From a virus (taxonomy: Duplodnaviria > Caudoviricetes): 43,428 nucleotides of DNA. The stretch lies in the IMG/VR virus record IMGVR_UViG_3300017655_000238, positions 1 through 43,428 of that record; one strand, written 5' to 3'. Below the pieces are notes generated by a model. The model did not search any database and had not been told where the DNA came from. It saw only the letters and a program-made list of their open reading frames with translations. This document shows positions 719 through 37,757 of this stretch, piece after piece. The translations under genes were made by a program, and so were the position numbers. Each line of letters opens with the position of its first letter. Positions within the stretch are counted from its first letter, which is position 1.

Positions 719-1615
719 TTAGCCGATTGTTTCACAGGAGGCGATTTCTGCCAACTCCTGATAGAGATCCGCATGTCTGGCTTTAAGGAAGCGAACGATC
801 CGAGTATTGGCGAGCAGTTTTTTAAGAAAGCCACGAAACAGAGTTAACTGAAGCATGCTTCCCGCGAACGTTTGCTCACAAACCTTATACTCCTTCTGAA
901 GAGAATCCATTTCCACCTCCATTCGGTGCAGTTCTTCTGGCCGGATTTTCCTGTTCCTCGGAATGGCTTTCCCCACCAGCTTCTCGCGCGGAGTCGCCAT
1001 AACAAGAGCTTCCACGTAAGGCTTCGTATAATTTCCTGCACCAGATAGAAGGTCAACAATCTCTATCTGACGACTGGTGATCACCCTCTTCAGCAGGTTT
1101 AGTGTGCCCCGGGAGACCTGCTTGTCTTTCAATACATTGACGACCTCCCGGCAGAGCCCCTCCGTTATCCTCATGCTTGCCCTGATATGCGCTTCATCCC
1201 GGTGGAGGGCCGCAGCGATCCTCGCGACCGGAACACCGCCTTCGATCGCCTTGAGGATCATACGTTGCTCCTGAATAGGAGCCAATCGGTTGACCTTGGC
1301 GTTGTATGTGTAGCTCTCATCTTCAGAAGCGATAAGACACTCCACTTCTGTTATTCCAAGCTCCCGGCAAGCTGCGAAACGGTAGTGCCCATCCATGAGG
1401 AGATAGAAGTCTTTCACTCCTTTTTGCGGGTAAACAATCAAAGGCTCGATCAGACCTGTTTCCGGGATCGAAGTGACAATCGCTCGGTAGCGGGAGAATT
1501 TCTTGCCGGTTGCATCAATTTGACGAATCGGAAGAATCCGATTGATCGGCAATATCAAACGGTTCATTCCAAACGCGATCTTCGGTTCTTTAGGTTTATT
1601 TTTGCTTTCGCTCAT
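719..1615 (-). CDS. ParB N-terminal domain protein with RepB-like C-terminal domain
   Basis: SIPETGLIEPLIV...LLMDGHYRFAAC (ParB/Srx GxxR motif), followed by a helical C-terminus; last gene of the recombinase operon. Confidence 0.8.
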   Translation of the reverse strand: MSESKNKPKEPKIAFGMNRLILPINRILPIRQIDATGKKFSRYRAIVTSIPETGLIEPLIVYPQKGVKDFYLLMDGHYRFAACRELGITEVECLIASEDESYTYNAKVNRLAPIQEQRMILKAIEGGVPVARIAAALHRDEAHIRASMRITEGLCREVVNVLKDKQVSRGTLNLLKRVITSRQIEIVDLLSGAGNYTKPYVEALVMATPREKLVGKAIPRNRKIRPEELHRMEVEMDSLQKEYKVCEQTFAGSMLQLTLFRGFLKKLLANTRIVRFLKARHADLYQELAEIASCETIG

Positions 1616-1619
1616 AAGG

Positions 1620-2492
1620 TCAGATTTTGGGTGCAGTCCGATTGTCGAGTTCCTTTGGAACGGAGGTTACCCCTTCGGCACGCAGAAGGTTCAGGAAATC
1701 GTGATCCGCAAATAGATTTCTGAATGCTTCGACGACAAAGATCCTACGGGCATCGCAGATTTGTGTTTTTCGAACGAGAGATTTCTGTCGTTGGGTTTCC
1801 TTTTTTAAGGTATCGATAATTCTCTCGGCCGTTCGACTCTTATTGGCTCCTGGGTATCCTTTGAGTTTCTTACTGAAGGCGTTCCGTTGAGCAAGAACCC
1901 TTCTAACAACGCGAATTTTTTCTTGATTGATGTGTCCATTCTCATATGCAGTGAGGAACTCACGCTGTTGCTCTTTGGTCTCAGCCTTCGCAATCTCAAT
2001 AGCAACCCCAAGGGGGATCTTGCCATTCATCGTTTCATAGATCAACCGCTCTTCTCCCGCGTTGTTCAGAGTAAGCAGCCCACCAACAGTGCCATCTGAA
2101 ATATCAAGCTTTCTTCCTATATCTACATTGTTGTAGCCTTGCGTTTTCAAGCGGAGAATCTCTTCAACCAGATCCTGCGGTGTAACCGTACGTCGCACCA
2201 TATTTTCCACGAGACTCATGAGCATACTTGTCTCCTTATCTGCTTCGACAATAATTGCAGGGATATGCGTGAATCCAAGGCTCTCAAACGCTTCTTTTCG
2301 TCCTTGGCCGCAAATCAGGTCGTAGAAAGGCTTTTCGCCCGTTTTAGTGGTGTGAAGGGTAACTTGAATAGGCTTCTTTAGGCCGGATTTTCTGATACTT
2401 TCCACCACCAGGGTAAATTTTCTCTTGTCACGATGACGTGGGTTAGGCACCCGTATACGATCGATTGGAATATTAATTACTTCGTTATTCAT
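1620..2492 (-). CDS. ParB/RepB/Spo0J-like protein
   Basis: IPIDRIRVPNPR...SIRKSGLKKPIQV...LICGQGRKEAF...SLVENMVR plus an HTH-like segment; start overlaps the recombinase stop (ATGA). Confidence 0.85.
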   Translation of the reverse strand: MNNEVINIPIDRIRVPNPRHRDKRKFTLVVESIRKSGLKKPIQVTLHTTKTGEKPFYDLICGQGRKEAFESLGFTHIPAIIVEADKETSMLMSLVENMVRRTVTPQDLVEEILRLKTQGYNNVDIGRKLDISDGTVGGLLTLNNAGEERLIYETMNGKIPLGVAIEIAKAETKEQQREFLTAYENGHINQEKIRVVRRVLAQRNAFSKKLKGYPGANKSRTAERIIDTLKKETQRQKSLVRKTQICDARRIFVVEAFRNLFADHDFLNLLRAEGVTSVPKELDNRTAPKI

Positions 2493-4051
2493 AGCAGATT
2501 TTTAATGTCCACACGTTCAGCCATTCGGAAAAAGAACGAGAGATCGTCCACCCGGTAAGCGTCCAGTTCAATTTGATTTTCGTCGGCTAACCGTCGACTC
2601 GTCGCAAAAGGGGTTATGTCAAGGGCGGGAAGAAGGTAATAATCCTGAATGGTCTTATTACCAGAACAGAGCCTGGCAGCTATGGTAAGGTCCGGATTAA
2701 GCGCTGAGTCCAGGCGGACTAACCAACGGGACGATCCGCGACCAGTCGTAAAGTGCCGGCAAAGCACGATCGATACCCATATCTCGTGATTGATCAAGAG
2801 CAGGTCCGTTTCTCGATCCAGTTCAATTCCAGCACCCATTTGTTCGAGATGAAAAATAATTTCGCGAAACAGCTCCGGACGCATTCTACGAATTGCCCGA
2901 TTATCTTCAATAAAAGTATAGTCAACCGGGGGCGAGTAACCGATCAGAAAATACGCTTTTATCAGGCTTCCAAAGCGATAGCGGAAAGCCGCGCTTGAGG
3001 GCATTTCCTCATTCTCATCAATCAGAATCCCAGAGATTCGACCGTGCTTCCTGAAGAGGTTCTGTAATTTCTCCAGCATCTCTTTATCGGAGAGTTTTCG
3101 ACTTCGCTCAAGAATGATTTCCTGTGCCCTGCGGAATATTTCCTTATCAATGACCGGTGGCCATGCCTCGTCTGCTCGAATCCAGTGCTCGGGCGAATTT
3201 TTAACGTGCTTTGCTTTCAGTTTAAATGAGGTCCGGTGGTAGACATTATTACCGATGTATTTTTCGTTGGTAAGAATCTGATGAACCGTTGCGCGACTCC
3301 AAGGGCGGTTGAAGTCAGTTCGTATTCCACGGCAATTAAGCGCCAATGCTATCTCGGATTCACTGAGGCTTTCCCGGATAAACGCGTCGTAGATCCATCT
3401 CACCTCGATAATCTCATCCTCGGGCCCGGGCACCAGTACGACTCGGTCTGTCTGAATGCTTTTGTGCTCGCCAATCTTAAGAAGCCCCTTCCGCTGACCG
3501 CTCTGGTCAATCAACATTCGGCGGAGGCCAAATCCGGCAGTCCCTCCCTGCTTGTAGCCCATTTGAATCAGGCGACACGCTCCCTGAAAGACTTTAGCGG
3601 AAAGTTCGAGACTGTAGGTCCCGGCCATCACCCGCTTCATCATCTTGTTCATATTCGCCATCATGCTGCCGTCATTCTCAAACTGTTCGGCACAATAATG
3701 AACGGCGATGCCGTGCTGACGGCAGATAAACTCGTAGTGCGCACCTTCGTCTGAATCCTGAAAGCGTCCCCAGCGGCTGATGTCATAGACCAAAATTGAT
3801 CCAAAGTCATTTTGCCCCGATTCCACATCGGAGAACATTCTGGCAAGAGCCTTGCGTCCTTTAATACTCAAGCCGCTTTTTCCCTCGTCCGAATAGATTC
3901 GAACGATCTCCATTCCCCTTTGGGAAGCATACTCTTGAATCACATCCATCTGATTACTTGTCGAATACTTCTGGTGCTCGGTTGACATCCGGACATAGGC
4001 GGCAGCCTTAATGGTGGGGGTCGCAATTTCAGTCTCTCTCATTTCGTTCAC
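2489..4051 (-). CDS. Large serine recombinase (resolvase + recombinase domains, extended C-terminus)
   Basis: AAAYVRMSTEHQ catalytic Ser motif, YSDEGKSG, VYDISRWGR, and WSRATVHQILTNEKYIG recombinase motif. Confidence 0.92.
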   Translation of the reverse strand: MNEMRETEIATPTIKAAAYVRMSTEHQKYSTSNQMDVIQEYASQRGMEIVRIYSDEGKSGLSIKGRKALARMFSDVESGQNDFGSILVYDISRWGRFQDSDEGAHYEFICRQHGIAVHYCAEQFENDGSMMANMNKMMKRVMAGTYSLELSAKVFQGACRLIQMGYKQGGTAGFGLRRMLIDQSGQRKGLLKIGEHKSIQTDRVVLVPGPEDEIIEVRWIYDAFIRESLSESEIALALNCRGIRTDFNRPWSRATVHQILTNEKYIGNNVYHRTSFKLKAKHVKNSPEHWIRADEAWPPVIDKEIFRRAQEIILERSRKLSDKEMLEKLQNLFRKHGRISGILIDENEEMPSSAAFRYRFGSLIKAYFLIGYSPPVDYTFIEDNRAIRRMRPELFREIIFHLEQMGAGIELDRETDLLLINHEIWVSIVLCRHFTTGRGSSRWLVRLDSALNPDLTIAARLCSGNKTIQDYYLLPALDITPFATSRRLADENQIELDAYRVDDLSFFFRMAERVDIKNLL

Positions 4052-5216: not shown

Positions 5217-6407
5217 ATGTTGCAAATGGCTTCTCTCCGAAAAATCCCCGGCTGTAAAAATTGGATCGCGTGCTTCACCGATAAAGATGGGCGACGCAGG
5301 CAACGTTCTACCAGCGAGACGGACCGAAAGAAAGCGCAGAAGATTGCGGACGGGTATGAGACGGCGGCCCGGCAGAAGAGGACCGTCCGGCAGATCCGCA
5401 GCGTGCTCTCTGAATTGTCAGAGATGGTTACGGGAGAGGGGCTCAAGGTCGTCTCCTTTGGCGGATACGTGAAGGACTGGCTGGAGCGTAAAACTCACGA
5501 AGTGTCCGATTCTACCAAAGTATCGTACGAGGATGCGCTTCAATCGTTCGTCGTCTTTCTGGGCCCAAAAGCGGAGAGGGAAATTTCGGACATTACCGAG
5601 ACTGAGGTGGTGGCTTTTCGCAACGCCAGGATGGAGGCGGGATTCGCAAGGCCGACGGTCAACAAGGCGCTGAAATCGCTGCGCTTGATTTTCAAGGAGG
5701 CGAGGTCCGAAGGATTGATTGCCGATGATCCCACGGAGTTCGTTAAGGCGGTGAAGGAAACGGGAGGGGCGAATCAAAACGATCGACGACCCTTCACCCG
5801 GGATGAGATCGACCTGGTGTTGAAGCGGTGCAGCCCGGAGTGGCGCTCCATGGTGCTCTTTGGGCTCTACACCGGCCAGCGGCTTTCTGACCTCGCCCTG
5901 CTGACTTGGGGGAACATTGACCTTCCGGCGCGTGAACTGCGGATGGTGGCCAGCAAGACCAGCAAGACGATTGTGATCCCGCTTGCAGGGCCGCTATGGG
6001 AGCACGTCCAGTGTCTGCTTAAACCCACGCCGCCGGACACCGTTGTGACCAAACGGTCACCATCGACCCCGATCCACCGTGAATGCTACGACCTGCGGGC
6101 GAAGACAAAGGGGTCAGCCGGGTTGAGTAATGCGTTCGCGAAGATCCTCGAAGCAGCGGGCTTGCGGGAGAAATCGACGAAACAGAAGCTCGAAGGTGGC
6201 CGGGGCCGGAGCGCCCCCCGCAAAAGCCGCGGGCTTTCTTTCCACTGCCTGCGCCACACGGCCGTGACGATGCTCAAGGAAGCAGGCATCCCGGCAGCGG
6301 TGGTGATGGAGCTGGTCGGGCATGACTCGAAGGCGGTCAGCCAGCATTACACCCACGTGGGAAGCGAGGCGTTGAGGAAGGCGGCAGAGGCGTTTCCGGA
6401 GTTGTGA
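5217..6407 (+). CDS. int: Tyrosine recombinase (phage integrase)
   Basis: YTGQRLSD (R), SKT (K), FHCLRH (HxxR), LVGH, HYTH (Y); adjacent to the att site. Confidence 0.95.
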   Translation: MLQMASLRKIPGCKNWIACFTDKDGRRRQRSTSETDRKKAQKIADGYETAARQKRTVRQIRSVLSELSEMVTGEGLKVVSFGGYVKDWLERKTHEVSDSTKVSYEDALQSFVVFLGPKAEREISDITETEVVAFRNARMEAGFARPTVNKALKSLRLIFKEARSEGLIADDPTEFVKAVKETGGANQNDRRPFTRDEIDLVLKRCSPEWRSMVLFGLYTGQRLSDLALLTWGNIDLPARELRMVASKTSKTIVIPLAGPLWEHVQCLLKPTPPDTVVTKRSPSTPIHRECYDLRAKTKGSAGLSNAFAKILEAAGLREKSTKQKLEGGRGRSAPRKSRGLSFHCLRHTAVTMLKEAGIPAAVVMELVGHDSKAVSQHYTHVGSEALRKAAEAFPEL

Positions 6408-7941: not shown

Positions 7942-8831
7942 CTCATCTTTCTAATGACCTGATCGACCGGATAGCACCAGGCGAGTTCGCTGGCGTCTGC
8001 GGAAATCATATCGTAAGCGGGGTTGGAGGAGATAAGCCGATAGGTGGTGCCGACGCGCTCCAGTTTCTTGAAGACGACGCCACCTTCCTTTAGCCGGGCA
8101 ATCACGTAATCTCCGGTTTGCGCTTCGTAGGAGGGGCAGATGACGGCGATGGAGCCCTCTGGAAACTCCGGGGACATGGAATCGCCCTTGATGCGGACGG
8201 CGATTGCTTTGGCGTCGCGAACGTCGTAGGCGGTGATGGTTTCATAATCATAAATTCCGTCCGTGTAGTCGGTGAGTTCGCCTGCCTGGGCCATTGAAAT
8301 GAGGGGGATGTTCTTTGCTTTGATTCCGTCGGTGGTGACGACGTTGGAGATGGAGCCGACGGTGCCCTCCCCTACTCCGAGTGATGGCACCTGATCCGAA
8401 CCGCGCATGAGGTCTTCTTTTTCGAGGCCGAGCACGGAGGCGACCTTTTCCGCGAATTTCTCGGAGAGTCGCGCCCCGGCGTCTTCGAGCGCCTGGATAT
8501 ACCCGATGCCGTAGCCGGTGGCGCGAGCCAGATCCTTCTGGGTCATTCCCTTTGCCTCGCGGGCGGCTTTCAGGAGGGTGCGGGGCGTTGAAGCTGACGA
8601 AGTGGAGGGAAGCTCCAGGGCATCCAATTTTGATACCACTTTTTGACTGGGCCGTTTCTCTCCCTTCTCAATCGACCAGACGTATCCCTTCGTAATCCCC
8701 AGAGCGACAGCCATTTGCTCCTGTGTCATGCCCAGTTTTGAGCGAACGGATTTCACCCTTTTCGAAAAATCTTCGGGTGGTGCCACTTTTTTGGTTGCCC
8801 CAATAACACTTTTGGTACTACTTTCTTTCAT
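7938..8831 (-). CDS. CI-like repressor with two XRE HTH domains and an S24 peptidase domain
   Basis: RSKLGMTQEQMA and REAKGMTQKDLA HTHs; AG cleavage site (AQAG), KGDSMSP (Ser), VFKKL (Lys). Start uncertain (ATG 8831; ORF open to 8870). Confidence 0.9.
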   Translation of the reverse strand: MKESSTKSVIGATKKVAPPEDFSKRVKSVRSKLGMTQEQMAVALGITKGYVWSIEKGEKRPSQKVVSKLDALELPSTSSASTPRTLLKAAREAKGMTQKDLARATGYGIGYIQALEDAGARLSEKFAEKVASVLGLEKEDLMRGSDQVPSLGVGEGTVGSISNVVTTDGIKAKNIPLISMAQAGELTDYTDGIYDYETITAYDVRDAKAIAVRIKGDSMSPEFPEGSIAVICPSYEAQTGDYVIARLKEGGVVFKKLERVGTTYRLISSNPAYDMISADASELAWCYPVDQVIRKMR

Positions 8832-8876
8832 CAACACCCCCTTATCTGAAAAAGTGAAGTCGATACACAAAATCTC

Positions 8877-9134
8877 ATGAAGAAATCTTTACCAAAAACG
8901 CTAATCACTGAACAGCAGCAAATTGAGGCGGAGCATTTCCGCCGGAAGGCTAAGGCGCAGATCGCGCTCAACGGGGAGACGATCAAAGCTCTTGCCAAGA
9001 GGATCGGTTACCCCGCCGGAACGGTTACGGCGGCGCTACGGCGGCCTTGGGACACGCCAAACGTCGTCACCGCTATCGAGGCCGACTTGTTCGGCAAGAA
9101 GCATGTCGGGAGCCGGGAGGAGGTGGCGAAGTGA
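8877..9134 (+). CDS. Cro-like HTH regulator
   Basis: Divergent from CI; ETIKALAKRIGYPAGTVTAAL HTH. Confidence 0.7.
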   Translation: MKKSLPKTLITEQQQIEAEHFRRKAKAQIALNGETIKALAKRIGYPAGTVTAALRRPWDTPNVVTAIEADLFGKKHVGSREEVAK

Positions 9135-9358
9135 GCGCCTGGTATGTCGCCGGATACTCGGGCGAGGGCACACTCATCGTAGACGACGAGCGCGTCGTTG
9201 CTGTCGTCAAGGCTGGGGATGCCGTCGAACTAATCCGCTCTGCTCCAGATCTGTTGGAGATCGCCAAAGCCGTCTACGCGGGTGGTATGTCCTACCCCAA
9301 GTACCTGCGCGACAAAGCGGCTGCCGCCATCGCGAAAGCGGAAGGAGGCCAGCCATGA
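9131..9358 (+). CDS. Phage hypothetical protein
   Basis: GTGA overlap with the cro stop; LIRSAPDLLE...AAIAKAEG motif typical of small early phage proteins. Confidence 0.65.
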   Translation: MSAWYVAGYSGEGTLIVDDERVVAVVKAGDAVELIRSAPDLLEIAKAVYAGGMSYPKYLRDKAAAAIAKAEGGQP

Positions 9359-9540
9359 TCGAAGTCACCCCCTCCGACATCCCCTTCCTTCTCATGTGCC
9401 TTATCGTGCTGCTCTTTGTGGCTTACGCCGCCGGAGACTTCTTCGGGTGGCGACGGGGCCGAGAAGAGGCTGAAGAGGAATTCAACGAAGCCTTCAAAGA
9501 ACTCGGCCCGACCATCAACAGAAAGGAAGCATCCAAATGA
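9355..9540 (+). CDS. Small membrane protein
   Basis: ATGA-coupled start with GGAGG RBS; single TM helix (FLLMCLIVLLFVAYAAG). Confidence 0.6.
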   Translation: MIEVTPSDIPFLLMCLIVLLFVAYAAGDFFGWRRGREEAEEEFNEAFKELGPTINRKEASK

Positions 9541-9851
9541 GCCAGGTAGTAGAACGCATCTTCTCTTTGAGCGAAACCTACATCAAAGGTCTCATGAAAG
9601 AGATCGCTGCGGAAACGGAGACCCGGACCAAAGAGCGCCACAAGGCAATCGAGGAGGCCGGGCCAAGGCCGGAATGGATTCGCATTCGCACGGCTGTGAA
9701 GCTGTTTGACCTCTCCGAAAGCTACATCAAAGGGTTGATCTCGGAGAACAAGATCAAGAGCCGGGTGCTGAAAGACCGGGGGCAGATCCGGGGGGTTCGA
9801 CTGATCTCCTTTGATTCGCTGAACGAGTTCATCGAAGGGGGGAAACTGTGA
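9537..9851 (+). CDS. Excisionase-like winged-HTH DNA-binding protein
   Basis: EWIRIRTAVKLFDLSESYIKGLISENKIKSR...RLISFDSLNEFI. Confidence 0.65.
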   Translation: MSQVVERIFSLSETYIKGLMKEIAAETETRTKERHKAIEEAGPRPEWIRIRTAVKLFDLSESYIKGLISENKIKSRVLKDRGQIRGVRLISFDSLNEFIEGGKL

Positions 9852-10123
9852 GTGCTTTAGAACTCATCGCAGCCGAACGAGATCGTCAGATTTCAAAAGG
9901 ATACGACGCTACTCATGATGACCAGCACAATGACGACCTATCAATTGTGGCAACACAGGTCATCTTCGCCGCCGCAACAGGAGAGGGCAGTGACGGCTGG
10001 GGGATCGTTAAGAAGCATGCTGGAAACCCGGTGAAGCTATTGACTATCGCTGGCGCATTGATCGTTGCGGAAATAGAACGACGTCAGCGGCTCAAATCGA
10101 AAGCCGAAAGGAGCCAACCATGA
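9848..10123 (+). CDS. Conserved phage helical protein
   Basis: IAAERDRQ...HDDQH...AGALIVAEIER motif common in phage early regions; function not established. Confidence 0.65.
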   Translation: MSALELIAAERDRQISKGYDATHDDQHNDDLSIVATQVIFAAATGEGSDGWGIVKKHAGNPVKLLTIAGALIVAEIERRQRLKSKAERSQP

Positions 10124-11400
10124 GTGGCAATCTCACGAACGTCCTCCCCGAAGAGTCGCAGACGGCCACGGCGGTTCTCGCCTGGTGGAAGGCTCGCGGG
10201 GATGCGGAACCACGGCGGCGCTACCTTGGCATGTCAGCTATTGGCGAGGAGTGCGAGCGGCGGCTTTGGTATAGCTTCCGGCATGCGGCGCAGGAGGATT
10301 TCCCTGGTCGGCTCTACCGGCTCTTTAATCGGGGGCACCGGGAGGAGGAGATCATCGCCGAAGAGCTTCGCGGGATCGGCTGCACGGTGTTGCTCGAAGA
10401 CGAGAACGGGAAGCAGTTCGGCTTCTCGGGTGTGGGCGGGCATTTCAAGGGCCATATGGACGCGGCGATCCTTGGTGTACCGGAAGCGCCGAAGACGTGG
10501 CATCTGGGCGAGTTCAAGACGCACTCGGCGAAGTTGTTCGCTGACTTGGCGAAGAAAGGCGTGCAGGCGGCCAAGCCGGTGCACTACGCGCAGATGCAGA
10601 TTTACATGCGCAAGTCGGGCATGACGCGGGCGCTCTACTATGCGGTAAACAAGGACACCGATGAGGTTTACGTGGAGCGGGTGCGGTACGATGCGGCGTT
10701 TGCGGCGGGCCTCGAAGCGAAGGCGGAGCGGATCATCACGGCAACGAAGCCCCCGGCGCGGATCGCGGAGCGGCGCGATGACTTCCGCTGCAAGTTTTGC
10801 CCGGCGAAGAGCCTTTGCCACGGGACCAGCGGTGAAGAGCCTGCGGTGCCGATCTCGAAGCCGTCTTGCCGGCAGTGTGTCCATGCGACGCCGGAACTGG
10901 ATGGAGATGGCCGGTGGTCATGTGCCAAGCATGGGAAAGACCTTTCCACGGAAGATCAGGAGCGCACCTGCCGATCGTTCCTGTTGATCCCTGACTTTGT
11001 GACGTTCGCTGAGCCGGTGGATGCGCACAAGACCGAGAGCGGTGACGACGTGATCGAGTTTCGCAACCTGGCGGACGGGTCGATCTGGCACCACGGGCCG
11101 GACCGGGAGGCGGGGCACTGGACGGTTGCCGATCTTCTTTCGAAGCCGATGGGCGAGCTTCGCATGCCGAGCCTTCTGGAGCAAAGCCAAGGATGGGGGA
11201 TGACCAGCTACGCGGTGCATGGGCTGGAGCATCTGACTGCTGCATGGAAGCACCTCACGCACCTCAATGATTTTCCCGAGCCGCTCAAGACCGAGAAGGG
11301 CGACGGCTACGAGATTACTGAATTTCCTGGAGGGGACTTTGTTCTGGTGGCCCCTGCCGAGGATTATGCCGAAATCAGATACAACAACATTCCCTTTTAA
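10120..11400 (+). CDS. Cas4-like / PD-(D/E)xK exonuclease with Fe-S cysteines
   Basis: YLGMSAIGEECERRLWY, GHMD...EFKT, HYAQMQIY, CKFCPAKSLC. Confidence 0.85.
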   Translation: MSGNLTNVLPEESQTATAVLAWWKARGDAEPRRRYLGMSAIGEECERRLWYSFRHAAQEDFPGRLYRLFNRGHREEEIIAEELRGIGCTVLLEDENGKQFGFSGVGGHFKGHMDAAILGVPEAPKTWHLGEFKTHSAKLFADLAKKGVQAAKPVHYAQMQIYMRKSGMTRALYYAVNKDTDEVYVERVRYDAAFAAGLEAKAERIITATKPPARIAERRDDFRCKFCPAKSLCHGTSGEEPAVPISKPSCRQCVHATPELDGDGRWSCAKHGKDLSTEDQERTCRSFLLIPDFVTFAEPVDAHKTESGDDVIEFRNLADGSIWHHGPDREAGHWTVADLLSKPMGELRMPSLLEQSQGWGMTSYAVHGLEHLTAAWKHLTHLNDFPEPLKTEKGDGYEITEFPGGDFVLVAPAEDYAEIRYNNIPF

Positions 11401-11406
11401 TTACCC

Positions 11407-12180
11407 ATGGCTTTTTCACTTGATTCCATTACCACATCTTCGGTTCTCAAACCTCCCCGCGCGATCGTTCTTGGCGTGGAAAAGATCGGCAAAAGTACGT
11501 TTGCCGCTGGCTCCGATCGTCCGATCTTCATCCCGATCAAACGAGAAGAAGGGATCGACGACCTGAACGTTGCCCGATTCCCCGCATGCGAAACCTTTGG
11601 CGACGTGATGAGCGCGATTAGCGTGCTTTATCAGGAGGATCACCAGTACCAGACGGCAGTGATTGATTCCTCCTCCGCGCTTGAACCGGTGATCTGGGAA
11701 GATGTGTGCCAGGAGAACGGCGCGGCTTCGATTGAAAAAGTGAACGGCGGGTTCGGCAAGGGGTACGTCGAGGCGCTTTCCCGGTGGCAATCGATCATGG
11801 AGGGGCTGGATGCGCTCCGCGAGCACAAGAATATGGCCAGCATCATCATCGGCCACGTGAAGGTTTCTCACTTCAACGATCCTGAGCGGGATAGCTACAA
11901 CCGTTACACCTTCGACATTAACGACCGGGCGAGCAATGCGCTTTTCCGATGGGCTGATTTCATCGGCTTCGCCAACAACAAGATTGTGACCACGACCGAA
12001 AAGCAGGGCTTCGGCAAAGAGGTGAAGCGTGCGGTTGATGCAGCCAACGGCAACCGCTTTCTCTTTACGCAGAAGACTCCTGCGCACCCCGGCGGCGGTC
12101 GGGGCGTTTACGGTCGGTTGCCTGCGGAGCTTTCGCTTTCGTGGGAAGCGTTCAAGAACGCCGTGGCAGCGGCAGTGTGA
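11407..12180 (+). CDS. AAA_24 / Sak4-like ATPase (single-strand annealing recombinase)
   Basis: Walker A GVEKIGKST, Walker B AVIDS, GGFGKGY motif; lies between the exonuclease and the SSB. Confidence 0.85.
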   Translation: MAFSLDSITTSSVLKPPRAIVLGVEKIGKSTFAAGSDRPIFIPIKREEGIDDLNVARFPACETFGDVMSAISVLYQEDHQYQTAVIDSSSALEPVIWEDVCQENGAASIEKVNGGFGKGYVEALSRWQSIMEGLDALREHKNMASIIIGHVKVSHFNDPERDSYNRYTFDINDRASNALFRWADFIGFANNKIVTTTEKQGFGKEVKRAVDAANGNRFLFTQKTPAHPGGGRGVYGRLPAELSLSWEAFKNAVAAAV

Positions 12181-12186
12181 TTTTAC

Positions 12187-12329
12187 GCAGGCGGCGGCGT
12201 GGAGCCAAGCGGTATATCCGGGGACGCCCGGTGAGAGCGCAGGCAGGTAGACACGCAGGGGCAGCGAGAGACGGTGCCCCTAAAGAAAGTGCGTCCATTC
12301 AGTCGGTTCGAATCCGGCCCGCCTGCACC
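12187..12329 (+). ncRNA. tRNA-like structured ncRNA with expanded interior (not a canonical tRNA)
   Basis: 8-bp acceptor stem GCAGGCGG/CCGCCTGC, T-arm GTCGG-TTCGAAT-CCGGC, ACC tail and internal hairpins; intergenic. Confidence 0.7.
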
Positions 12330-12482
12330 TTTTCCTAATAGCTCGACGCGCATCAAATAAAAAGGCCCGCCCATCTGAGGAACCTCGCGGATAAGAGCAG
12401 CAATGCTCCGGGACGATTTAGCTATTCCTTTTTCACAGACAGCCGGAGAGACGGCAACTCAAACCAAAATGCAGCAAACATC

Positions 12483-13004
12483 ATGAGCAACATCGCAAGC
12501 GCCATTGGCGGCGCATTCAATGCCAACGAACACGACACGACCGACACCACGACGCCGATTCCTCCGGGAGATTACCCTTTCCTGATTGAGAAGGCGGAGC
12601 TTCGGGACACGAAGGACGGTTCGGGAAAATACGTCTGGATTCAGGCGACCGTTACCGGGGAGCAATACGCGGGCCGAAAGGTCTTCGAGAACTTCAATAT
12701 CGTCAACTCCAGCGCGGAGGCCGTGCGGATCGGTCGCAGTGACCTGGCGAAGCTGGCGGTCGCCGTCGGCGCGCCGATGCTTCAGGACACTGGTGAACTG
12801 GTGAACAAGGCGTTCATCGGGCGGGTGAAGGTGAAGGACGGCGACAACAAGTTCTCTGCGTACAAGCCGATTGGTGGGAGCGCCCCGGCACCGTCCACGC
12901 CGCCCGTGGCGCAGTACACCGCCCCGGCACAGGCTCAGCAACATGCCCCGGCGACGGCCGCCGCTGCCGCGCCTGTCGCCAAGAAGATGCCTTGGCAGCG
13001 GTAA
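12483..13004 (+). CDS. DUF669-like phage ssDNA-binding protein
   Basis: PIPPGDY...TKDGSGKY...GRKVFENFNI; Ala/Pro-rich tail ending PWQR. Confidence 0.8.
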   Translation: MSNIASAIGGAFNANEHDTTDTTTPIPPGDYPFLIEKAELRDTKDGSGKYVWIQATVTGEQYAGRKVFENFNIVNSSAEAVRIGRSDLAKLAVAVGAPMLQDTGELVNKAFIGRVKVKDGDNKFSAYKPIGGSAPAPSTPPVAQYTAPAQAQQHAPATAAAAAPVAKKMPWQR

Positions 13005-13037
13005 ACCGATCAACCCGAAACCTCAAGCCAAACTATC

Positions 13038-13433
13038 ATGACAGCAACAACCGATACACAGACAGAAGAAAAACTCCGCGAACTTACCTCGCAGCTTGCC
13101 GATGCGCGCGCGGAGGAGGCCGCCGCGAAGGCGAAGCGCATCCAGGCAGAAGAGGCCATCGTGGCGCTCCTCGACCCGGGCGAGCGGAGCACGGTGACCG
13201 TCGACCCCGGTAACGGGCTCAAGGTGACCATCAAGACGGACCTTAGCTACAAGGCGGATATCGACGCGATTGAAGTGATTGACTCCGATCTTGTCAAGGT
13301 GACGACGAAGAAGGAACTCGACACGAAAGCGTACGAGGCGCTGCGCGAGCAGAATACCGCTTTGTTCGACCACATCAGCGAGTACGTCACCGTCACCCCG
13401 AAGAAGCCCGCCGTCACGCTCAAGGTGGTCTGA
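13038..13433 (+). CDS. Phage hypothetical protein (replication/recombination module)
   Basis: Coiled-coil N-terminus, ...VTVTPKKPAVTL C-terminus; phage-like codon usage. Confidence 0.7.
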   Translation: MTATTDTQTEEKLRELTSQLADARAEEAAAKAKRIQAEEAIVALLDPGERSTVTVDPGNGLKVTIKTDLSYKADIDAIEVIDSDLVKVTTKKELDTKAYEALREQNTALFDHISEYVTVTPKKPAVTLKVV

Positions 13434-13453
13434 TCGGGCAAACCCCAAAACCT

Positions 13454-13480
13454 TCCGGTGGTGGTTAACCGGACTCTTTT
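13454..13480 (+). terminator. Possible weak intrinsic terminator
   Basis: TCCGGT...ACCGGA hairpin followed by CTCTTTT. Confidence 0.35.
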
Positions 13481-13484
13481 CCCA

Positions 13485-13889
13485 ATGAAAAACCAGAAAC
13501 GCAAACGCAAGAAGGCCGTGCCAAAGATCAGGGTCAAGGATGCATTCCCTTATTCGTTCTCTCGCATTGTTCGGGAGCTTCGCATTTCGCCCGGTGCCGT
13601 TGATCGGCTCGCGGAAGACTTCCCGGCAGACTATACCACCCGAAACACACGCAGGTATCGCTGCATTCCAGAGGGCGCGGATCGGTTCAGGATTATCAAG
13701 AAGTCGGGTCGCTTCCATATTGTTGGAATCTTCTCTCGGGATGCCGAGCCGACGCTGTTCGAGGGCACAAAAGAAGATTGCGAGAAGGTGCTCAAGGCTA
13801 CCGTGACGCGCTGGTGGAGCTTGTCGCGCGGACGGGAGTTCCCGACGGTGGCGCAAGAGATCCTTGGGTTGAAGGAGTTGCAGAAGTGA
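13485..13889 (+). CDS. Basic hypothetical protein
   Basis: ATG 13485, KRKRKK N-terminus; stop overlaps the helicase start (TGATG). Confidence 0.55.
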   Translation: MKNQKRKRKKAVPKIRVKDAFPYSFSRIVRELRISPGAVDRLAEDFPADYTTRNTRRYRCIPEGADRFRIIKKSGRFHIVGIFSRDAEPTLFEGTKEDCEKVLKATVTRWWSLSRGREFPTVAQEILGLKELQK

Positions 13890-15532
13890 TGGCGACGGCG
13901 CTCCATTTCAAGCCGCCTTCCGCCACGACGCTCACGCCGCGCCCGTACCAGGAGGAGGCGCTCGATGCGCTTGACGAGCACCTTGCGACGAAGGAGACGA
14001 ACCCGTGCGTCGTGGTGCCGACGGCGGGCGGCAAGAGTTTCATCATGGCGCTGGCCATCTCCCGTTGGAAGCTGGCGCACCCACCGCTTCGGGTTTGCAT
14101 CCTCGCGCACCGCAAGGAGCTGGTGAAACAAAACAGCGATGAGCTGATCGGAATCTGGCCTGCCGGGGACATCGGGATCTACGCGGCGGGGCTGCGACGG
14201 CGGAATGTCTACCACTCGATCCTTTATGCTTCGATTGATTCCATCTGGAACAAGTGGGGCGATTTCGAGCCGTTCGACGTGATCTTCGTTGACGAGGCGC
14301 AGCGCATCCCGGCGCGTGGTGAAGGAAAGTATCGGGCGTTTATCAACGGGTGCAAGCAGTTCAACCCGCACCTTCGAGTGATCGGGATTACCGCGACCCC
14401 GTACCGGATGGAAGGGCCGATCTGTCACAGGGACCATATCCTGCAAGAGATCGCTTATGAGGTCCATATCACGCAGTTGCTTCAGGGTGGGTACGTCTGC
14501 CCGTTGCGCTCCCGGATCGGGGAGGTGCAGCCGGACATTAGCGGGGTGCAGCGCAACGGGAAGGGTGACTATATCGAGAAGCAGCTCGCGGAGGCGGTGG
14601 ACAAGAGCGACGTGGTGGCCGGGGCGGTGTCGGAGATGGTGCGAATCATCCGGGCGGAGCGGCGGCAGTCGGTGATTGTCTTTTGTGTGGATATTGCCCA
14701 CTGCGAAAACGTGAGCCGGGAGCTTCGCAAGTATGGCATCGCCGCGCCGTATGTTACGGCGAAGACACCGGTGGCGGAGCGGGACCGGCTGGCGGAGATG
14801 TTCAAGCGCAGGCAGCTGCAGGTTCTTCTCAACGTCAACGTCTACACGGAGGGGTTCAATGCCAAGTGCGTCGATTGTGTGGTGCTGCTGCGCCCGACGC
14901 TATCCAAGGGGCTTTACGTGCAGATGGTCGGACGCGGGCTTCGGCTCCACCCGGACAAGAGCGATTGCCTGGTGCTCGACTTTGCCGGGTGCATCGCGGA
15001 GCACGGGCCGATTGACCAGCTCGATGCTGGGGTGGTGATCATGGCGCGGTGCGGCGGGTGTGGTGACTCGTTTTCTCGGGCGATCCGGGTCTGCCCGCAT
15101 TGCGGGTGGGAGATCCCGCCGGTGGAGATGGAACGGCTGGAGTCGGAGGAGAAGGCCGAGGCGGAGCGTCGGATGCACGCGGCGAAGCCGAAGGATGACC
15201 CCGTCATCAGTGAGCCGATTTGGCTCGATGTCGATGACGTGAGCGTGCACCTGCATCGGAAGGTGGATGCGCCTGACAGCCTGCGGGTGCAGTACCGCTG
15301 CGGGATTACCGTGGTGAGCGAGTGGATCTGTCTCAACCACTCGGGCTTCGCCCGTAAGAAGGCAGGCCAATGGTGGTTGGCTCGCAAGCTTCCCGGTGAC
15401 TACCAGACGGTGACCGTGGCGGAGGCGGTGAGCAACCTTTTCCTTGGGGGCGAGATCAAGGCGCGGACCAAGCAGATTCAGGTGATCCGGCGCGGTCGGT
15501 ATCACGAGATTTTAGACTATCAACTTTCTTAA
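13889..15532 (+). CDS. SF2 DEAD/DEAH helicase (RadD/YejH-like) with zinc finger
   Basis: PRPYQ, PTAGGKS, DEAQ, TAT, QMVGRGLR, and CxxC...CPHCG. Confidence 0.92.
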   Translation: MATALHFKPPSATTLTPRPYQEEALDALDEHLATKETNPCVVVPTAGGKSFIMALAISRWKLAHPPLRVCILAHRKELVKQNSDELIGIWPAGDIGIYAAGLRRRNVYHSILYASIDSIWNKWGDFEPFDVIFVDEAQRIPARGEGKYRAFINGCKQFNPHLRVIGITATPYRMEGPICHRDHILQEIAYEVHITQLLQGGYVCPLRSRIGEVQPDISGVQRNGKGDYIEKQLAEAVDKSDVVAGAVSEMVRIIRAERRQSVIVFCVDIAHCENVSRELRKYGIAAPYVTAKTPVAERDRLAEMFKRRQLQVLLNVNVYTEGFNAKCVDCVVLLRPTLSKGLYVQMVGRGLRLHPDKSDCLVLDFAGCIAEHGPIDQLDAGVVIMARCGGCGDSFSRAIRVCPHCGWEIPPVEMERLESEEKAEAERRMHAAKPKDDPVISEPIWLDVDDVSVHLHRKVDAPDSLRVQYRCGITVVSEWICLNHSGFARKKAGQWWLARKLPGDYQTVTVAEAVSNLFLGGEIKARTKQIQVIRRGRYHEILDYQLS

Positions 15533-15559: not shown

Positions 15560-15754
15560 ATGACAAACGACCAGATTGAGACATTGCGGAAGATGGCAGC
15601 GAAGGAGCGGCAAAACGCGGCTTACTTGCGCGAGATCACGGAGGCGTATGAATCAGGCAAGCACAAGAAGGGCGCTGCAAGCTATCGAGTGAGGGCGAAT
15701 CTTGCTGACAAGCAGGCAGAGGCGCTGGAGGCGGCGTTGGCTCGGCTCCAATGA
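15560..15754 (+). CDS. Small hypothetical protein
   Basis: Helical ORF, ATGA-coupled to the methyltransferase. Confidence 0.55.
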   Translation: MTNDQIETLRKMAAKERQNAAYLREITEAYESGKHKKGAASYRVRANLADKQAEALEAALARLQ

Positions 15755-16704
15755 ACTACTACAACGAGTTCGACCCGAGGGCCGCCGCTTGGCTCCGGGA
15801 GCTTATCAAGCAAGGCCACATTCCACCGGGCGAGGTGGATGAAAGATCAATCACCGATGTTACAGCAAACGACCTTTCTGGATTTACTCAATGTCACTTT
15901 TTCGCAGGGATCGGAGGATGGAGCCTTGCCTTGCGACTCGCAGGATGGCCGGAAGACCGCCCGGTCTGGACCGGCAGCTGCCCTTGTCAGCCGTTCAGCG
16001 CGGCGGGAAAAGGACTCGGAGAAAAAGACGAACGCCACCTCTGGCCCGAGTTCTTACGGCTCATCAGCGAGTGCCGCCCTGCAACGATCTTTGGCGAGCA
16101 GGTTGCAAGCAAGCTTGGACGTCAATGGCTCTCTGGAGTATTCGCTGACTTGGAAGACGTGGGATATGCCGTTGCGGGAGCCGATTTGTGCGCTGCGGGC
16201 GTCCGCGCGCCGCATATCAGGCAACGGCTTTGGTGGATGGCCTACGCCGCTCGCGAACAAGCTAACACCACAAACACGGAAGGACTTCACGCCGAACCTT
16301 GCGGCAGTAGCCCTGCTTGCAGGATGGCCCACCCCAATGGCAGGGACACCAGCCAAAAACGGGAACAACGAAGCGGGGAACACCGACAGCAGCAGAAAGA
16401 CGGTTGCGCTGGTGGGTTGGGCGACGCCGACCGCCAGGGATATGAGATCAGAGCACGGATCGCCGGGGATGATGGCAAGGCGTTCGAGCAGGCCCCAAGG
16501 CAAACCACTCAGCAAGCAAGTTCTTGGAGCGATTTCGACGTCCTCCCATGCCTCGACGGAAAAGCGCGGCGCGTTGAATCCGGCACATTCCCGCTGGCTC
16601 ATGGGATACCCGGCAGAGTGGGACTCCTGCGGGGCTACGGCAATGCAATCGTACCGGAAGCCGCGGCGGTCTTCATTGAAGCAGCGGAGGAAGCAATAGC
16701 TTAA
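15751..16704 (+). CDS. DNA cytosine-5 methyltransferase, alpha polypeptide
   Basis: HFFAGIGG (motif I), GSCPCQPFS (IV), GEQV (VI), PHIRQRLW (VIII), LRGYGNAI (X). Confidence 0.9.
15839..16699 (+). CDS. Nested alternate-frame methyltransferase beta polypeptide (motif IX / TRD-like)
   Basis: 286-codon stop-free +1 frame inside the methyltransferase gene; three W[PA]TP repeats and [16 protein letters not shown] (motif IX-like). True start uncertain. Confidence 0.7.
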
Positions 16705-19771: not shown

Positions 19772-20032
19772 ATGGGAGTGCTCAAGAATCAGAAGCATGA
19801 GCGGTTCGCACAACTGATCGCAACGGGGAAGGCTGCAAGCGCGGCCTATGCGGAGGTGTATGGCAAAAAAGGGCGGGCGGCTGAGGCAAACGGCTCGCGG
19901 TTGATGAGGAACGATAAGGTTTCGCTCAGAATTGATGAGTTGAAGCAAAAAGCGGCTGACGAAACGGTGCTTTCGTTGCGGGAAAAGCGTCAGTTCCTCG
20001 CTGCCGTGATGCGGACGCCGCTTGAGGAGGTC
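19772..20032 (+). pseudogene. terS: Terminase small subunit, C-terminally truncated or fused
   Basis: LKNQKHERFAQ...AYAEVY...NGSRLMRNDKVSLRIDEL HTH; after RTPLEEV the frame runs into low-quality sequence overlapping the next gene. Confidence 0.75.
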
Positions 20033-20046
20033 CCTGGGGCGAGCCG

Positions 20047-20292
20047 GTGCCGTTCATGCTTTTCTTCAAGGGCGGCTCTCCTCCCAAGCCGAAAGAGGTG
20101 GAGGTGGAACTTCCGCCGCCGCCCAAGCCGATCCCGCCCCCGCCTCCTCCCACGGAGTACCGGCCGGACATTGAGCAGGTGACGCTCGACACGCGCAACC
20201 GCGAGGCGAAGAAGCGCGGGATCGGGGCGACATTGCTGGCCGGGGAGACCGGCGGCACCAACGCAAACGGGAAGCGGACGCTTTTGGGATAA
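20047..20292 (+). CDS. Small Pro-rich virion protein preceding the portal (ends ...TLLG), probably 5'-truncated
   Basis: FKGG...PPPP...KKRGIGATLL...KRTLLG directly abutting the portal start. Confidence 0.65.
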   Translation: MPFMLFFKGGSPPKPKEVEVELPPPPKPIPPPPPPTEYRPDIEQVTLDTRNREAKKRGIGATLLAGETGGTNANGKRTLLG

Positions 20293-28752: not shown

Positions 28753-29463
28753 ATGGCATCTGTAACCACAGCTTTAATCGTCGGTGCGGTCGCCACAGCG
28801 GTCGCTGGCGGACTTTCCTATTACTCTGCGCAGGAGCAGGCGGCGACCTCGCAGAGCATCGCCGCCTACAACGCTGCGGTGCAGCGGCAGCAGGCGGACC
28901 TGAATGCGAAGATTCAGATCCGGCAGTCTGAGATTAACCAGTCGATGCTGCAAAGCCAGATGAACCAGACGGCGGCGCTGGACAATCAGGCGGCTTCTAC
29001 GGAGGCGCATGCGCGGGAGGAGCAACGACGATTGCGGGAGGAGAAGCTGCGCTTGATTGGGGCGCAGCGGGCAGGGTTTGCCGCCGGGGGGGTGTTGATG
29101 GAGGGGACGCCGCTGGCGGTGTTTTCCGATACGGAATACAACTTCGCTTTGCAGGAGATGGATATTTTCAAGGCTTCCAGTGAGCAGGCGGATTCCCTGC
29201 GACGGGAGGCGGCGATTCAGCGGCAGGATCTCGGGACGCAGATGGAGGTGGAGAAGCTCAACGCAGAGGCGGCGAAGGCCGGGCGCGATATTGGATACAA
29301 CAACGCGGCGATGACGCTGGCTCAAGGGGCGGCGACGGCCCGGGCGTACAAACTCTCGGGGTACGGGACTCTGCTTAGTTCGGCCAGCAACATTGCCGGG
29401 CAGTATGGCGATTACAAAAAATTCACGGCTACGGTGCCGGTAAATAAGAAGAGCGGCGGTTAA
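28753..29463 (+). CDS. Internal virion / ejection protein (gp14-like)
   Basis: Hydrophobic Ala/Gly N-terminus, coiled coil, GAQRAGFAAGGV...GTPL motif. Confidence 0.75.
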   Translation: MASVTTALIVGAVATAVAGGLSYYSAQEQAATSQSIAAYNAAVQRQQADLNAKIQIRQSEINQSMLQSQMNQTAALDNQAASTEAHAREEQRRLREEKLRLIGAQRAGFAAGGVLMEGTPLAVFSDTEYNFALQEMDIFKASSEQADSLRREAAIQRQDLGTQMEVEKLNAEAAKAGRDIGYNNAAMTLAQGAATARAYKLSGYGTLLSSASNIAGQYGDYKKFTATVPVNKKSGG

Positions 29464-29477
29464 CGAGAGAAAAGTCT

Positions 29478-31457: not shown

Positions 31458-31467
31458 TTTTTTGGCC

Positions 31468-36404: not shown

Positions 36405-37717
36405 GCCTGCGGACTCGCGGGAAGCTGGTGGCGGAGCCGGATTTCAAAGACGCCCTGCTGACCTTTGTGCAGCACAAAACGCAGATGAACCACTGGATGG
36501 CGTACGCGGAGTTCATGCGGGAGTTTCAATCACTGGTGGGGCATCGGGATGTCATGAACGCGGTGGAGGGGAGCGGCGGGGAAGCGACCAGCCGGATGCT
36601 CGGGCAGTGGCTCGATTACTTTGCGCAGGGCGGGAATCGGGATGCGGGGTCGAGGTTGGAGCTGGTCGGATTCATTTCCAAGCTGGTTTCTAATGCGTCG
36701 GCAATGGCGATCGTCGGGCGGGCGGGCGTGTTGGCGGTGCAGAGCACGCAGATCCTTACCGCGCTCGCGGAAATGCCGACGGCGTCCTATTTGAAGCGGA
36801 TGGGGATGCTGGCCAGCGGGCAACTGGGTTTGAAGGCGGCTTGGGATTCGCCCTACATTCAGCGGCGCTTGAAGGAAATGCCGCCGGTGGTTCGGCAGTT
36901 GATGGAGGGCTTGAACTCGGGCAGCCCGACGCGGATCAAGTACGCGGTGCAGATGCTGGGCCGGTCGATCTCCGGCGCGGATGCGCTTTTCACCGCAGGG
37001 ACGTACGCGATCGTTTACGACTACCGGCTGACGAAGTTGATGGAAGGCGGGGTCGGGCTGGCGCAGGCGGAGCGCATGGCGCGAGAGGAAGCGGAACGGA
37101 TCACCGACCGGTTGGCGCAACCGATGCGGGCCGGTGCGCGCTCGATGATGGAACTGCGGATGAGCGGGAACCCGGCGTTTCGAATGGCGTGGAACTTCGC
37201 CAGTGAAGCGCGCAAAAACCTTGGCGTGGTGCTTTACGCGATGGCGCGCCGCGGCGGGGCTCAGGCGGGGAGGACGGTCATGGCGATGTGGGTGCTTCAA
37301 TCGCTGATGGCGAATCTGATCCGGGCGGCGTGGCGCGATGCGCGGGATGATGAGGACGATGATCTTTTTGACGAAAAGAACTGGAGCGCGAAACGCTTGG
37401 CGCTTGCCGTCCTAACGGAGCCGCTGGCGGGGGTTCCCGTGGTTGGCGATCTGGTGGAATCGGCAGTTTACCGCGGTGCCGGAGAGCATCAATTCTCGGG
37501 CGGGCTGCTTGAACTTGGGCGGGCGGTCTCCGCCGTGAAGCGGATTCCCGCGACGCTGGCCGGTGAACAGGAAGGGGCGGAGGTGCTGCGCGACATGGAG
37601 GCCATCCTGATGGGGATGGGGCTTTTCAGCACGAACCTTGCGGCGGCGGCTTCGCTCTCGCACATTGCCCGGGATCTCTTTGGTGTGGGCGAGAATGTGA
37701 GCGAGGCGGGAAAATAA
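36405..37717 (+). pseudogene. Large ejection protein, C-terminal part (+1 frame)
   Basis: SLRTRGKLVAEPDFKDAL... continues with the same codon style and no convincing own start; helical/hydrophobic C-terminus typical of gp16-like proteins. Confidence 0.65.
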
Positions 37718-37750
37718 CTATTGCATCGCTTTCGCGGAAATCCGACTACG
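37711..37750 (+). promoter_or_regulatory. Late-promoter-like motif, copy 2 (upstream of tail fibre)
   Basis: 35/40 identity to 23789-23828, including a 22-bp perfect match. Confidence 0.65.
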
Positions 37751-37757
37751 CTTGTCA

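Follow-up and report, generated by a model that had tools for sequence, protein, structure and literature searches.

The window, by which we mean the whole stretch of 43,428 bases analysed here, is a provirus record whose rightward operon runs in the order Cas4-domain exonuclease, Sak4, DUF669 single-strand binding protein (SSB), helicase, DNA methyltransferase, primase, and RusA, with the head-tail adaptor, major head, and tail genes coming after RusA. The repressor gene (c7938-8870) points away from this operon. A tyrosine integrase gene (5217-6407) is adjoined on the minus strand by a tRNA/tmRNA-like 3' end with a T arm and CCA (c5079-5110), which is likely an attachment-site remnant. In the class around a Chthoniobacteraceae MAG, the sole group compared, 33 of 151 genomes had relatives of the integrase at 48% identity or less, which fits a verrucomicrobial host. 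The window DNA occurs in two soil sequencing runs from one sample, one of which may be its source. To the left of 5079 lies another mobile unit with a serine recombinase gene and two ParB/RepB genes (719-4051). There is no clear ORF for the terminase large subunit ahead of the head-tail adaptor (19772-20182 region), and a long virion gene appears in two overlapping frames (31327-36693 and 36359-37717); frameshifts or a defective prophage are possible explanations of both.

Structure of the RNA gene

An RNA gene of 141 nt, counted up to discriminator A12327 and built on a tRNA-like frame, is placed between sak4 and ssb (Table 1). The sak4 stop codon lies 6 nt 5' of its start, and the ssb gene starts 155 nt 3' of it. 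The letters after A12327 are CC and then T, so the CCA is not genome-encoded.

Table 1. Genes of the recombination operon, the RNA gene and its parts, and the companion hairpin
Feature	Coordinates	Strand	Evidence or description
Cas4-domain exonuclease, opens the recombination module	10120..11400	+	phrog_1990, E 7.9e-99
Sak4-like ssDNA annealing protein	11407..12180	+	phrog_124, E 2.5e-25; AAA_24
tRNA-bodied RNA gene	12187..12327	+	model R1, 48.8 bits, E 2e-8, window outside the training set
Acceptor stem, 5' strand	12187..12194	+	pairs with 12319-12326; 8/8 pairs with double-sided change in 44 relatives
D arm	12197..12256	+	5-bp stem 12197-12201/12252-12256, 50-nt loop
D-loop insert	12209..12240	+	3-bp stem 12209-12211/12238-12240, conserved internal loop, 5-bp hairpin 12218-12231 with GACG loop
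Anticodon-position arm	12257..12281	+	no 7-nt anticodon loop; tip loop AGAGA
Weak fourth arm	12288..12299	+	loop CGTC (12292-12295), complement of the GACG loop; seen in the constrained fold
T arm	12302..12318	+	5 bp, loop TTCGAAT; 4/5 pairs with double-sided change in the 44 relatives
Acceptor stem, 3' strand	12319..12326	+	constrained structure of the window RNA
Companion motif, 4-bp hairpin with GAGAGA hexaloop	12442..12455	+	114 nt downstream of the RNA, 27 nt before the ssb start
DUF669/single-strand binding protein	12483..13004	+	profile matches

The acceptor stem consists of eight Watson-Crick pairs with pair probabilities of 0.82-1.0 and no G-U, and it is joined to the D stem by a 2-nt CG linker. 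Together with the T stem it forms a 13-bp branch of 8/5 type, and the arm at the anticodon position is 7 bp long, with a tip loop that resembles the hexaloop hairpin at 12442. A first-pass annotation of the window had described this acceptor with its canonical T arm, A discriminator, and CC, the D stem with an inserted hairpin, and a third arm lacking an anticodon loop, and all of these placements are correct; it had overlooked the fourth arm, whose loop is exactly complementary to the GACG loop of the insert.

The element folds with -67.3 kcal/mol (z -3.43), a stability that none of 200 shuffles equalled, and 300 dinucleotide shuffles of the whole window produced only one case of a T arm accompanied 30-200 nt upstream by a perfect 8-bp acceptor strand. 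Left unconstrained, the window RNA has a minimum-energy fold in which the T and D arms are mispaired (their probabilities being 0.2 and 0.13), and the cloverleaf lies 1.0 kcal/mol above it. Directly 3' of the RNA a 7-bp inverted repeat was observed (12337-12426), the first 12 nt of which match the start of T5 RNA2H at 11 positions; it is possibly a chance occurrence, since the 137 nt that come after the RNA are no more stably folded than their shuffles (z -0.21).

ARAGORN made no call on the window and Rfam gave no match at its thresholds, as the first-pass annotation had expected of an RNA that is no canonical tRNA; a scan to E 10 returned weak matches only, none of them to C4. Hammerhead, twister, and HDV-like ribozyme readings were judged by eye and dropped, and Rfam likewise gave no match for them.

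The family and its constrained parts

Patterns built from the two ends of the element matched 71 and 45 stretches of viral sequence as well as 16 genomes of bacteria. Among these are 97 distinct D-arm motifs, 85 of them closed by a T-like arm together with an acceptor strand that matches. When the acceptor strands were exchanged between loci, only 13-18 motifs closed. We removed four of the 85 as spurious (the second site of L143, L175, L189, and L233), and 12 D-arm motifs had no closing arm under the descriptor used. The family thus comprises at least 81 members, namely the window copy and 80 relatives from 69 viral contigs and 11 bacterial genomes (Planctomycetota, Armatimonadota, Gemmatimonadaceae, Peribacteria, Bipolaricaulota, Rhizorhabdus, Chthoniobacteraceae, Thermodesulfovibrionales, Elusimicrobia, and one uncultured bacterium). 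It is larger than counted, because exact patterns sample one branch only. Members are 97-228 nt long, with interiors of 24-175 nt that are mostly different.

Other searches returned little. An exact 22-nt pattern had no match in the viral contigs, chance matches were all that blastn gave for the region among 50,697 phage records, and Rfam matched no element among 19 family loci and the T4 locus. A model search of the 151 genomes around the Chthoniobacteraceae MAG, a weak one with 23 candidates scored per genome, recovered the seed genome only. One Zavarzinella genome (G003) holds five model matches (L243, L245, L247, L248, and L249), including two near-identical copies. We also observed phage tRNA-like genes with a Leu/Ser-type D arm, odd anticodon loops, and a long variable arm (L084, L085, L086, and L089-L092), three of which (L086, L089, and L091) are near a permuted tmRNA.

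A sister contig from the same soil sample shares 12180-12203 and 12300-12328 with two differences and has 92 other letters between them. This copy, aligned on the relative L147, has a short D loop, and its first 17 nt and 3'-terminal 29 nt are in common with the window RNA around another interior; a single sample thus contains one body with two different interiors.

When 44 short-loop relatives were aligned, 97.9% of the cells were paired, compared with 75.9% after shuffling. The patterns fixed the D stem and the descriptor required pairing, so that D-stem invariance and part of this percentage arise by construction, and the swapped-strand comparison is the fair control for pairing. The covariation score was 0.518 against 0.094 when shuffled and at most 0.078 with partners slid, and 153 cells were changed on both sides against 38 when shuffled. 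The covariation that the first-pass annotation had proposed as a check is therefore present in the acceptor and T stems (Table 1). Behind the D arm, 2/81 members have a canonical anticodon arm and 79/81 have none; ARAGORN called one of the 81, untyped. Covariation in these two stems, the missing anticodon arm, and the silence of Rfam and ARAGORN on the window bear out the earlier proposal of a non-decoding tRNA mimic. Among the 56 members with eight acceptor pairs the discriminator is A in 22, C in 16, T in 13, and G in 5, and CCA is encoded in two. Decoding or charging with one amino acid is not the family's shared job, because acceptor sequence and discriminator are free and the anticodon arm is missing.

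The elbow, in contrast to these free parts, looks constrained, as three D-loop types match three T-loop types. The GA(A/T)GGA-type D loop occurs with an 8-nt TATCAAGC-type T loop in 15/15 members, the GAAAGCAGA D loop with an AGTAGCG-type T loop in 8/8, and the GACGGTGA-type D loop with a canonical TTCRANT T loop in 44/48; ten members are outside the three types. This co-occurrence may reflect the descent of three sub-lineages instead of contact. An A directly precedes the T stem in 75/81 members. Pairwise BLAST among the 81 interiors gave only 10 matches. A second T arm is found inside the interior in 32/81, a count inflated by the T-loop search pattern, and some of these arms belong to a nearly whole inner tRNA shape. 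In seven loci (L114, L121, L130, L188, L201, L212, and L224) a near-complete tRNA or tRNA-like elbow is nested in the outer frame, and in L190 and L223 a full-length tRNA-like sequence stands straight after the D arm, the closing arm not being found by the descriptor.

The D loop is 5-12 nt long in 76/81 members and longer in 5/81, with 50 nt in the window. One of these five, the true relative L123, lies 25 nt 3' of a YqaJ exonuclease gene that comes after erf. It retains every one of the 32 pairs in the window structure, six of them with double-sided changes, and adopts the cloverleaf without constraints. Three of the six fall in the inserted hairpin (3/5 of its pairs), whose GACG loop is unchanged. 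By this comparison the 50-nt D-loop insert is a conserved add-on domain of one rare subtype. L123 also has a 5-bp arm at the place of the fourth arm, with CGU in its loop, and the insert is predicted to dock on the fourth arm through 4 bp in the window and 3 bp in L123, a pairing that shows no covariation. A kissing contact between the GACG loop and the loop CGTC of the fourth arm is possible on complementarity, and it is the more plausible because GACG tetraloops are dimer-linkage elements of retroviral RNA, as described in the available excerpt of PMC516450. The first-pass annotation had proposed a long-range pairing of GGACGC (12222) with GCGTCC (12291); both sequences are present, and the 6-bp pairing is backed only in part, with a possible 3-bp ACG/CGU in L123 and no covariation. 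A long-D-loop pattern gave 12 stretches, all of them tRNAs, allo-like tRNAs, or chance matches. The subtype pattern gave five stretches with one genuine match, on the contig of L123, and another pattern again gave one; in the metagenomes a subtype search found only a copy identical to the window, probably its source, and the three subtype searches returned no other member.

We then considered what surrounds the relatives. By hand count, flanking ORFs with PHROG matches number 62/145 on the RNA strand and 18/147 on the opposite strand, the ORF scans having taken 145/157 same-strand and 147/149 opposite-strand picks. Recombination genes (Sak4, Erf, RecT, exonucleases, Gam, and UvsX) flank 16/80 relatives, replication genes flank four more, and the terminase large subunit flanks eight. 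The proximity to recombination genes is a tendency only, counted without a background rate. None of the 80 sak4 loci at 50-62% identity matches the family model, and the element is absent from two ssb loci; ssb stands closely behind sak4 in most loci among the matches listed. Given these 80 sak4 loci without a match, the element does not belong to the sak4-ssb module as such.

A hairpin with a GA(G/A)AGA hexaloop starts at most 60 nt upstream of 5/80 relatives, compared with none in 318,360 nt of far flank, and it is directly upstream of the sister copy in soil run X1. This hairpin, which could be a protein-binding or antitermination site and has no Rfam match, was seen in the window (12442-12455) and in L106, L144, L147, L207, L220, and L246, often with GACA before it and with compensatory stems.

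A model (R1) trained on the 44 relatives, with the window excluded and E-values that are rough, gave 48.8 bits for the window, 48.4 for L123, 43.5 for Acidovorax phage AP1, and 41.3 for T5 RNA2, followed by a stretch of the HK75 late leader (31.9), the right end of Echild (28.2), the best canonical tRNA (18.2), and T4 rnaC (15.4). T5 RNA1 was not among the matches at E 1. The first-pass annotation had not recognised the large family, with T5 RNA2 among its members, of which the window copy is one variant.

Readings of the function

We tentatively favour, with slightly less than even confidence, the reading that the element would be a trans-acting tRNA look-alike occupying host proteins that bind the elbow and the acceptor/T domain. 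The choice follows from where selection appears to act, namely on the elbow and the lengths of the stems, and from the second elbow that many members add. The RNA would be co-transcribed with the early recombination operon; host RNase P, as in established tRNA processing, would cut at 12187, and host tRNA-maturation enzymes would trim the 3' end and add CCA. The released RNA would be stable and, in its mature form, would act in trans as a decoy or ligand for the proteins that recognise the elbow and the acceptor/T domain. The compensatorily conserved frame, the free interior and identity, the matched D/T-loop types, the A before the T stem, the second T arms, the annotation of T5 RNA2 as a stable RNA and its wide retention among phage records, and the cleavage of C4 RNA and the M. 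smegmatis YrlA by RNase P speak for it. On the other side, the interiors are so different that they may carry the function, and the window cloverleaf is not the minimum-energy fold. The eight acceptor pairs also count against it, since they give a 13-bp acceptor/T domain, which, as for tRNA-Sec, some tRNA-binding proteins would reject.

Two deletions in T5 bear on this, as given in the accessible part of 10.1101/2024.01.02.573894. By its coordinates T5 RNA2 is inside the T5_Mos deletion (30661-38625) and hence dispensable in the laboratory host, which is expected of a conflict-related accessory RNA. T5_123 (deletion 29191-32442) by the same reckoning keeps RNA2 and is still PARIS-sensitive, so RNA2 is no sufficient decoy for the PARIS anticodon nuclease. 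The idea of an anticodon-nuclease decoy, which had been among the first suggestions for the window, is weakened by this and by the lack of an anticodon loop to cut.

It is possible, and we hold it with rather low confidence, that the look-alike belongs to a modular phage RNA system, in which one host-matured, tRNA-derived frame carries swapped domains at the anticodon position or in the D loop, whole second elbows, and D and T loops that have co-evolved into at least three matched, partly non-canonical elbow types, as a general platform for counter-defence or host takeover. T5 RNA2 would then be its one laboratory-accessible member.

We consider it unlikely that the tRNA body is only a chassis for processing and stability while the interior, here the D-loop insert with the third and fourth arms, does the work, for instance as a protein-binding aptamer. 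Nearly all interiors, over their whole range of lengths, are different, the sister copy has the same ends and a short D loop around another interior, and the insert is kept by covariation in L123. However, no target or motif is common to the interiors, many of them are tRNA pieces (second T arm in 32/81), which points back to tRNA mimicry, and three matched D/T-loop types would be superfluous in a mere chassis.

A signal in cis, by which RNase P and 3' nucleases would cut the early mRNA, separating sak4 from ssb, helicase, and primase and setting their levels, is distinctly unlikely. The position close behind the sak4 stop codon, the lack of a sigma-70 promoter match on the RNA strand in 8500-14000 (host promoters may differ), the place of L123 behind its exonuclease gene, and the strand bias of the flanking PHROG ORFs agree with it. 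However, the module works without the element, as the 80 sak4 loci indicate, and a conserved insert is needless for a cut site, at which cleavage may still happen as a by-product. The pure mRNA-processing signal of the first-pass annotation loses further ground because L199 points opposite to the genes on either side of it and because T5 RNA2 sits within a cluster of tRNA genes.

An antisense repressor of C4/CI type, whose loops would pair with the phage early mRNA near the DNA methyltransferase start, appears improbable; the antisense tests of the C4-like regulatory RNA suggested at first came near chance. The segment 12201-12212 is perfectly complementary to 15785-15796 (12 nt), a second site lies at 15737-15743 with the methyltransferase start between the two, and the methyltransferase site reaches -18.0 kcal/mol, a value found in 2/200 shuffles for that loop. 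However, that loop is one of five tested, which makes the site pair borderline; a 12-nt match in the early region also occurs in 202/2000 shuffled RNAs, the 7-mer is not enriched (12 against 7.3 +/- 2.7), and both sites are coding. The 4.7 kb of L123 hold no 7-nt complement of the same segment, there is no Rfam C4 match at E 10, and for the 81 members together the longest complement inside 1 kb is 8.48 nt against 8.43 when shuffled (p 0.60), in a test that could miss short two-box pairings.

A decaying tRNA with a Leu/Ser-like D arm, or a selfish insert without benefit to the phage, would account for the patchy distribution (0/80 sak4 loci), the unconserved interior, and the dispensability of T5 RNA2 in the laboratory, but it is very improbable given the compensatory changes in acceptor, T stem, and insert, the single non-canonical build that T5 has in common with phages of at least nine named bacterial groups, and the retention of RNA2 in 417 phage records. 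Least credible is a tRNA that is charged without decoding and donates its amino acid outside the ribosome, or else a precursor from which splicing yields a working tRNA: in the window RNA, A73 and the ends of the D loop presumably resemble those of class II tRNA-Leu, and Mukai et al. (PMC5389517, in the portion available) give the precedent of irregular tRNAs that are charged yet not used in translation, but acceptor sequence and discriminator vary freely, removal of the insert still leaves no anticodon loop, and no Rfam intron family matches the element.

Comparison with known RNAs

The nearest relevant Rfam model is that of tRNA-Sec (RF01852), which likewise has a lengthened acceptor and an 8/5 branch. 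The likeness to tRNA-Sec noted in the first-pass annotation stands for this geometry and falls for the sequence model (21.1 bits against a gathering score of 47, in a different register); the UCA anticodon and the tetraloop D arm of tRNA-Sec are missing here, as is any anticodon arm. The features of a canonical tRNA (RF00005), a 7-nt anticodon loop with U33 and a 7/5 branch, are absent from the element, as are those of tmRNA (RF00023), in that no G-U stands in the acceptor, where G3-U70 is expected, and neither ARAGORN nor Rfam made a call. Like the C4 RNA of P1 and P7 (RF01695) and the P4 CI RNA, the element is a small structured RNA within an early phage transcript. Unlike C4 and CI, it has no Rfam C4 match and keeps canonical D and T arms. 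Its loops gave one borderline pair of complementary sites, at the methyltransferase start, with no excess over shuffles across the family. RNase P cuts phage C4 RNA and tRNA-like RNAs, according to the accessible part of PMC11143913.

Allo-tRNAs, as described in the available portion of PMC5389517, also have a lengthened acceptor stem, but their branch is of 12 bp, as 8/4 or 9/3, and they possess an anticodon arm and a long V arm, compared with the 13-bp 8/5 branch and no anticodon here. YrlA-type Y RNAs, in the excerpt of PMC4201824, share tRNA-like D, T, and acceptor parts without an anticodon and are found in phages, and the tRNA-like domain of the M. smegmatis YrlA is cut by RNase P and receives CCA. 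In YrlA, however, the acceptor is an internal hairpin and the gene adjoins Ro60, whereas the acceptor of the window RNA joins both RNA ends; no Ro60 was seen among the scanned neighbours, and the YrlA models of Rfam gave no match. Thus tRNA-Sec, allo-tRNAs, YrlA, tmRNA, and C4 each fail a defining feature.

The kind of RNA is already known from the records of T5 and T4, while the family is in no Rfam model tested. We found no published description of the family in the literature searched, the original T5 RNA papers being outside its coverage. Fremin 2023 (PMC10690425), in the part of the paper available, names five tRNA-overlapping candidates, and the family motif is absent from six of its supplementary files; three other files may contain it. 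The same literature contains no description of the D-loop-insert subtype, of matched D/T-loop types, or of nested elbows. The family is absent from phage annotation because tRNA finders and Rfam miss such genes.

Three further phage stretches, all unannotated, were observed. Acidovorax phage AP1 (OM049504, L238:1496-1613), a cultured phage, has a member with the 8-nt T-loop type. The lambdoid coliphage HK75, a convenient laboratory model, carries a tRNA-shaped RNA with a long interior in its late leader, between pR'/tR' and the holin gene (L235:1398-1526). Mycobacteriophage Echild has a tRNA-shaped stretch at its right genome end (L236:1058-1150), in the non-coding region from which cluster A2 phages make a very abundant, processed, and toxic non-coding RNA (PMC5712189); the accessible sections of that paper mention no tRNA-like fold for it.

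The T4 species 1 RNA (rnaC, AF158101 70908-71046), annotated as a small stable RNA, resembles the window RNA in its 139 nt, its TTCGAAT T arm, its acceptor-like stem, and the lack of an anticodon. In contrast, its acceptor is imperfect and its D region is another one, and its R1 score is no better than those of canonical tRNAs.

T5 RNA2 (AY543070 32959-33083, 125 nt) is annotated as 'tRNA-like stable RNA with unknown functions' and is covered to at least 80% by 417 of the 437 matching phage records. It has, like the window RNA, an 8-bp acceptor, a CG linker, a 5-bp D stem running straight into the interior, GA...GG.GA loop ends, a long interior without an anticodon arm, an A before the 5-bp T arm with TTCGAAT, an A discriminator, and a CCA that is not fully encoded. 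The D-stem sequence differs, with 3/5 pairs changed on both sides, and the D loop is 8 nt long (GA...GGGGA) compared with 50 nt in the window. T5 RNA2 has an inner T-like arm and lies in the tRNA cluster of a lytic siphophage, whereas the window RNA stands alone in a prophage recombination operon. The window RNA therefore agrees with the T5 RNA2 type in acceptor closing ends, T-arm stacking, CG linker, D stem, the A before the T stem, and model score, and it departs from the short D loop of 5-12 nt, for which it is treated as a subtype.

T5 RNA2 and the T4 species 1 RNA, both of 'unknown function' in the genome records, were until now without a family. T5 RNA2 gains a structural one, with at least 80 relatives and a cultured Acidovorax phage, in which the constrained parts (elbow and stem lengths) are now separated from the free ones (acceptor identity and interior). 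If the frame is a natural carrier of swappable RNA domains, it would be useful for RNA engineering. Mutants of the elbow, acceptor, and interior, challenged with panels of tRNA-targeting defences, now allow the old question of T5 RNA2 to be tested in T5 and E. coli.
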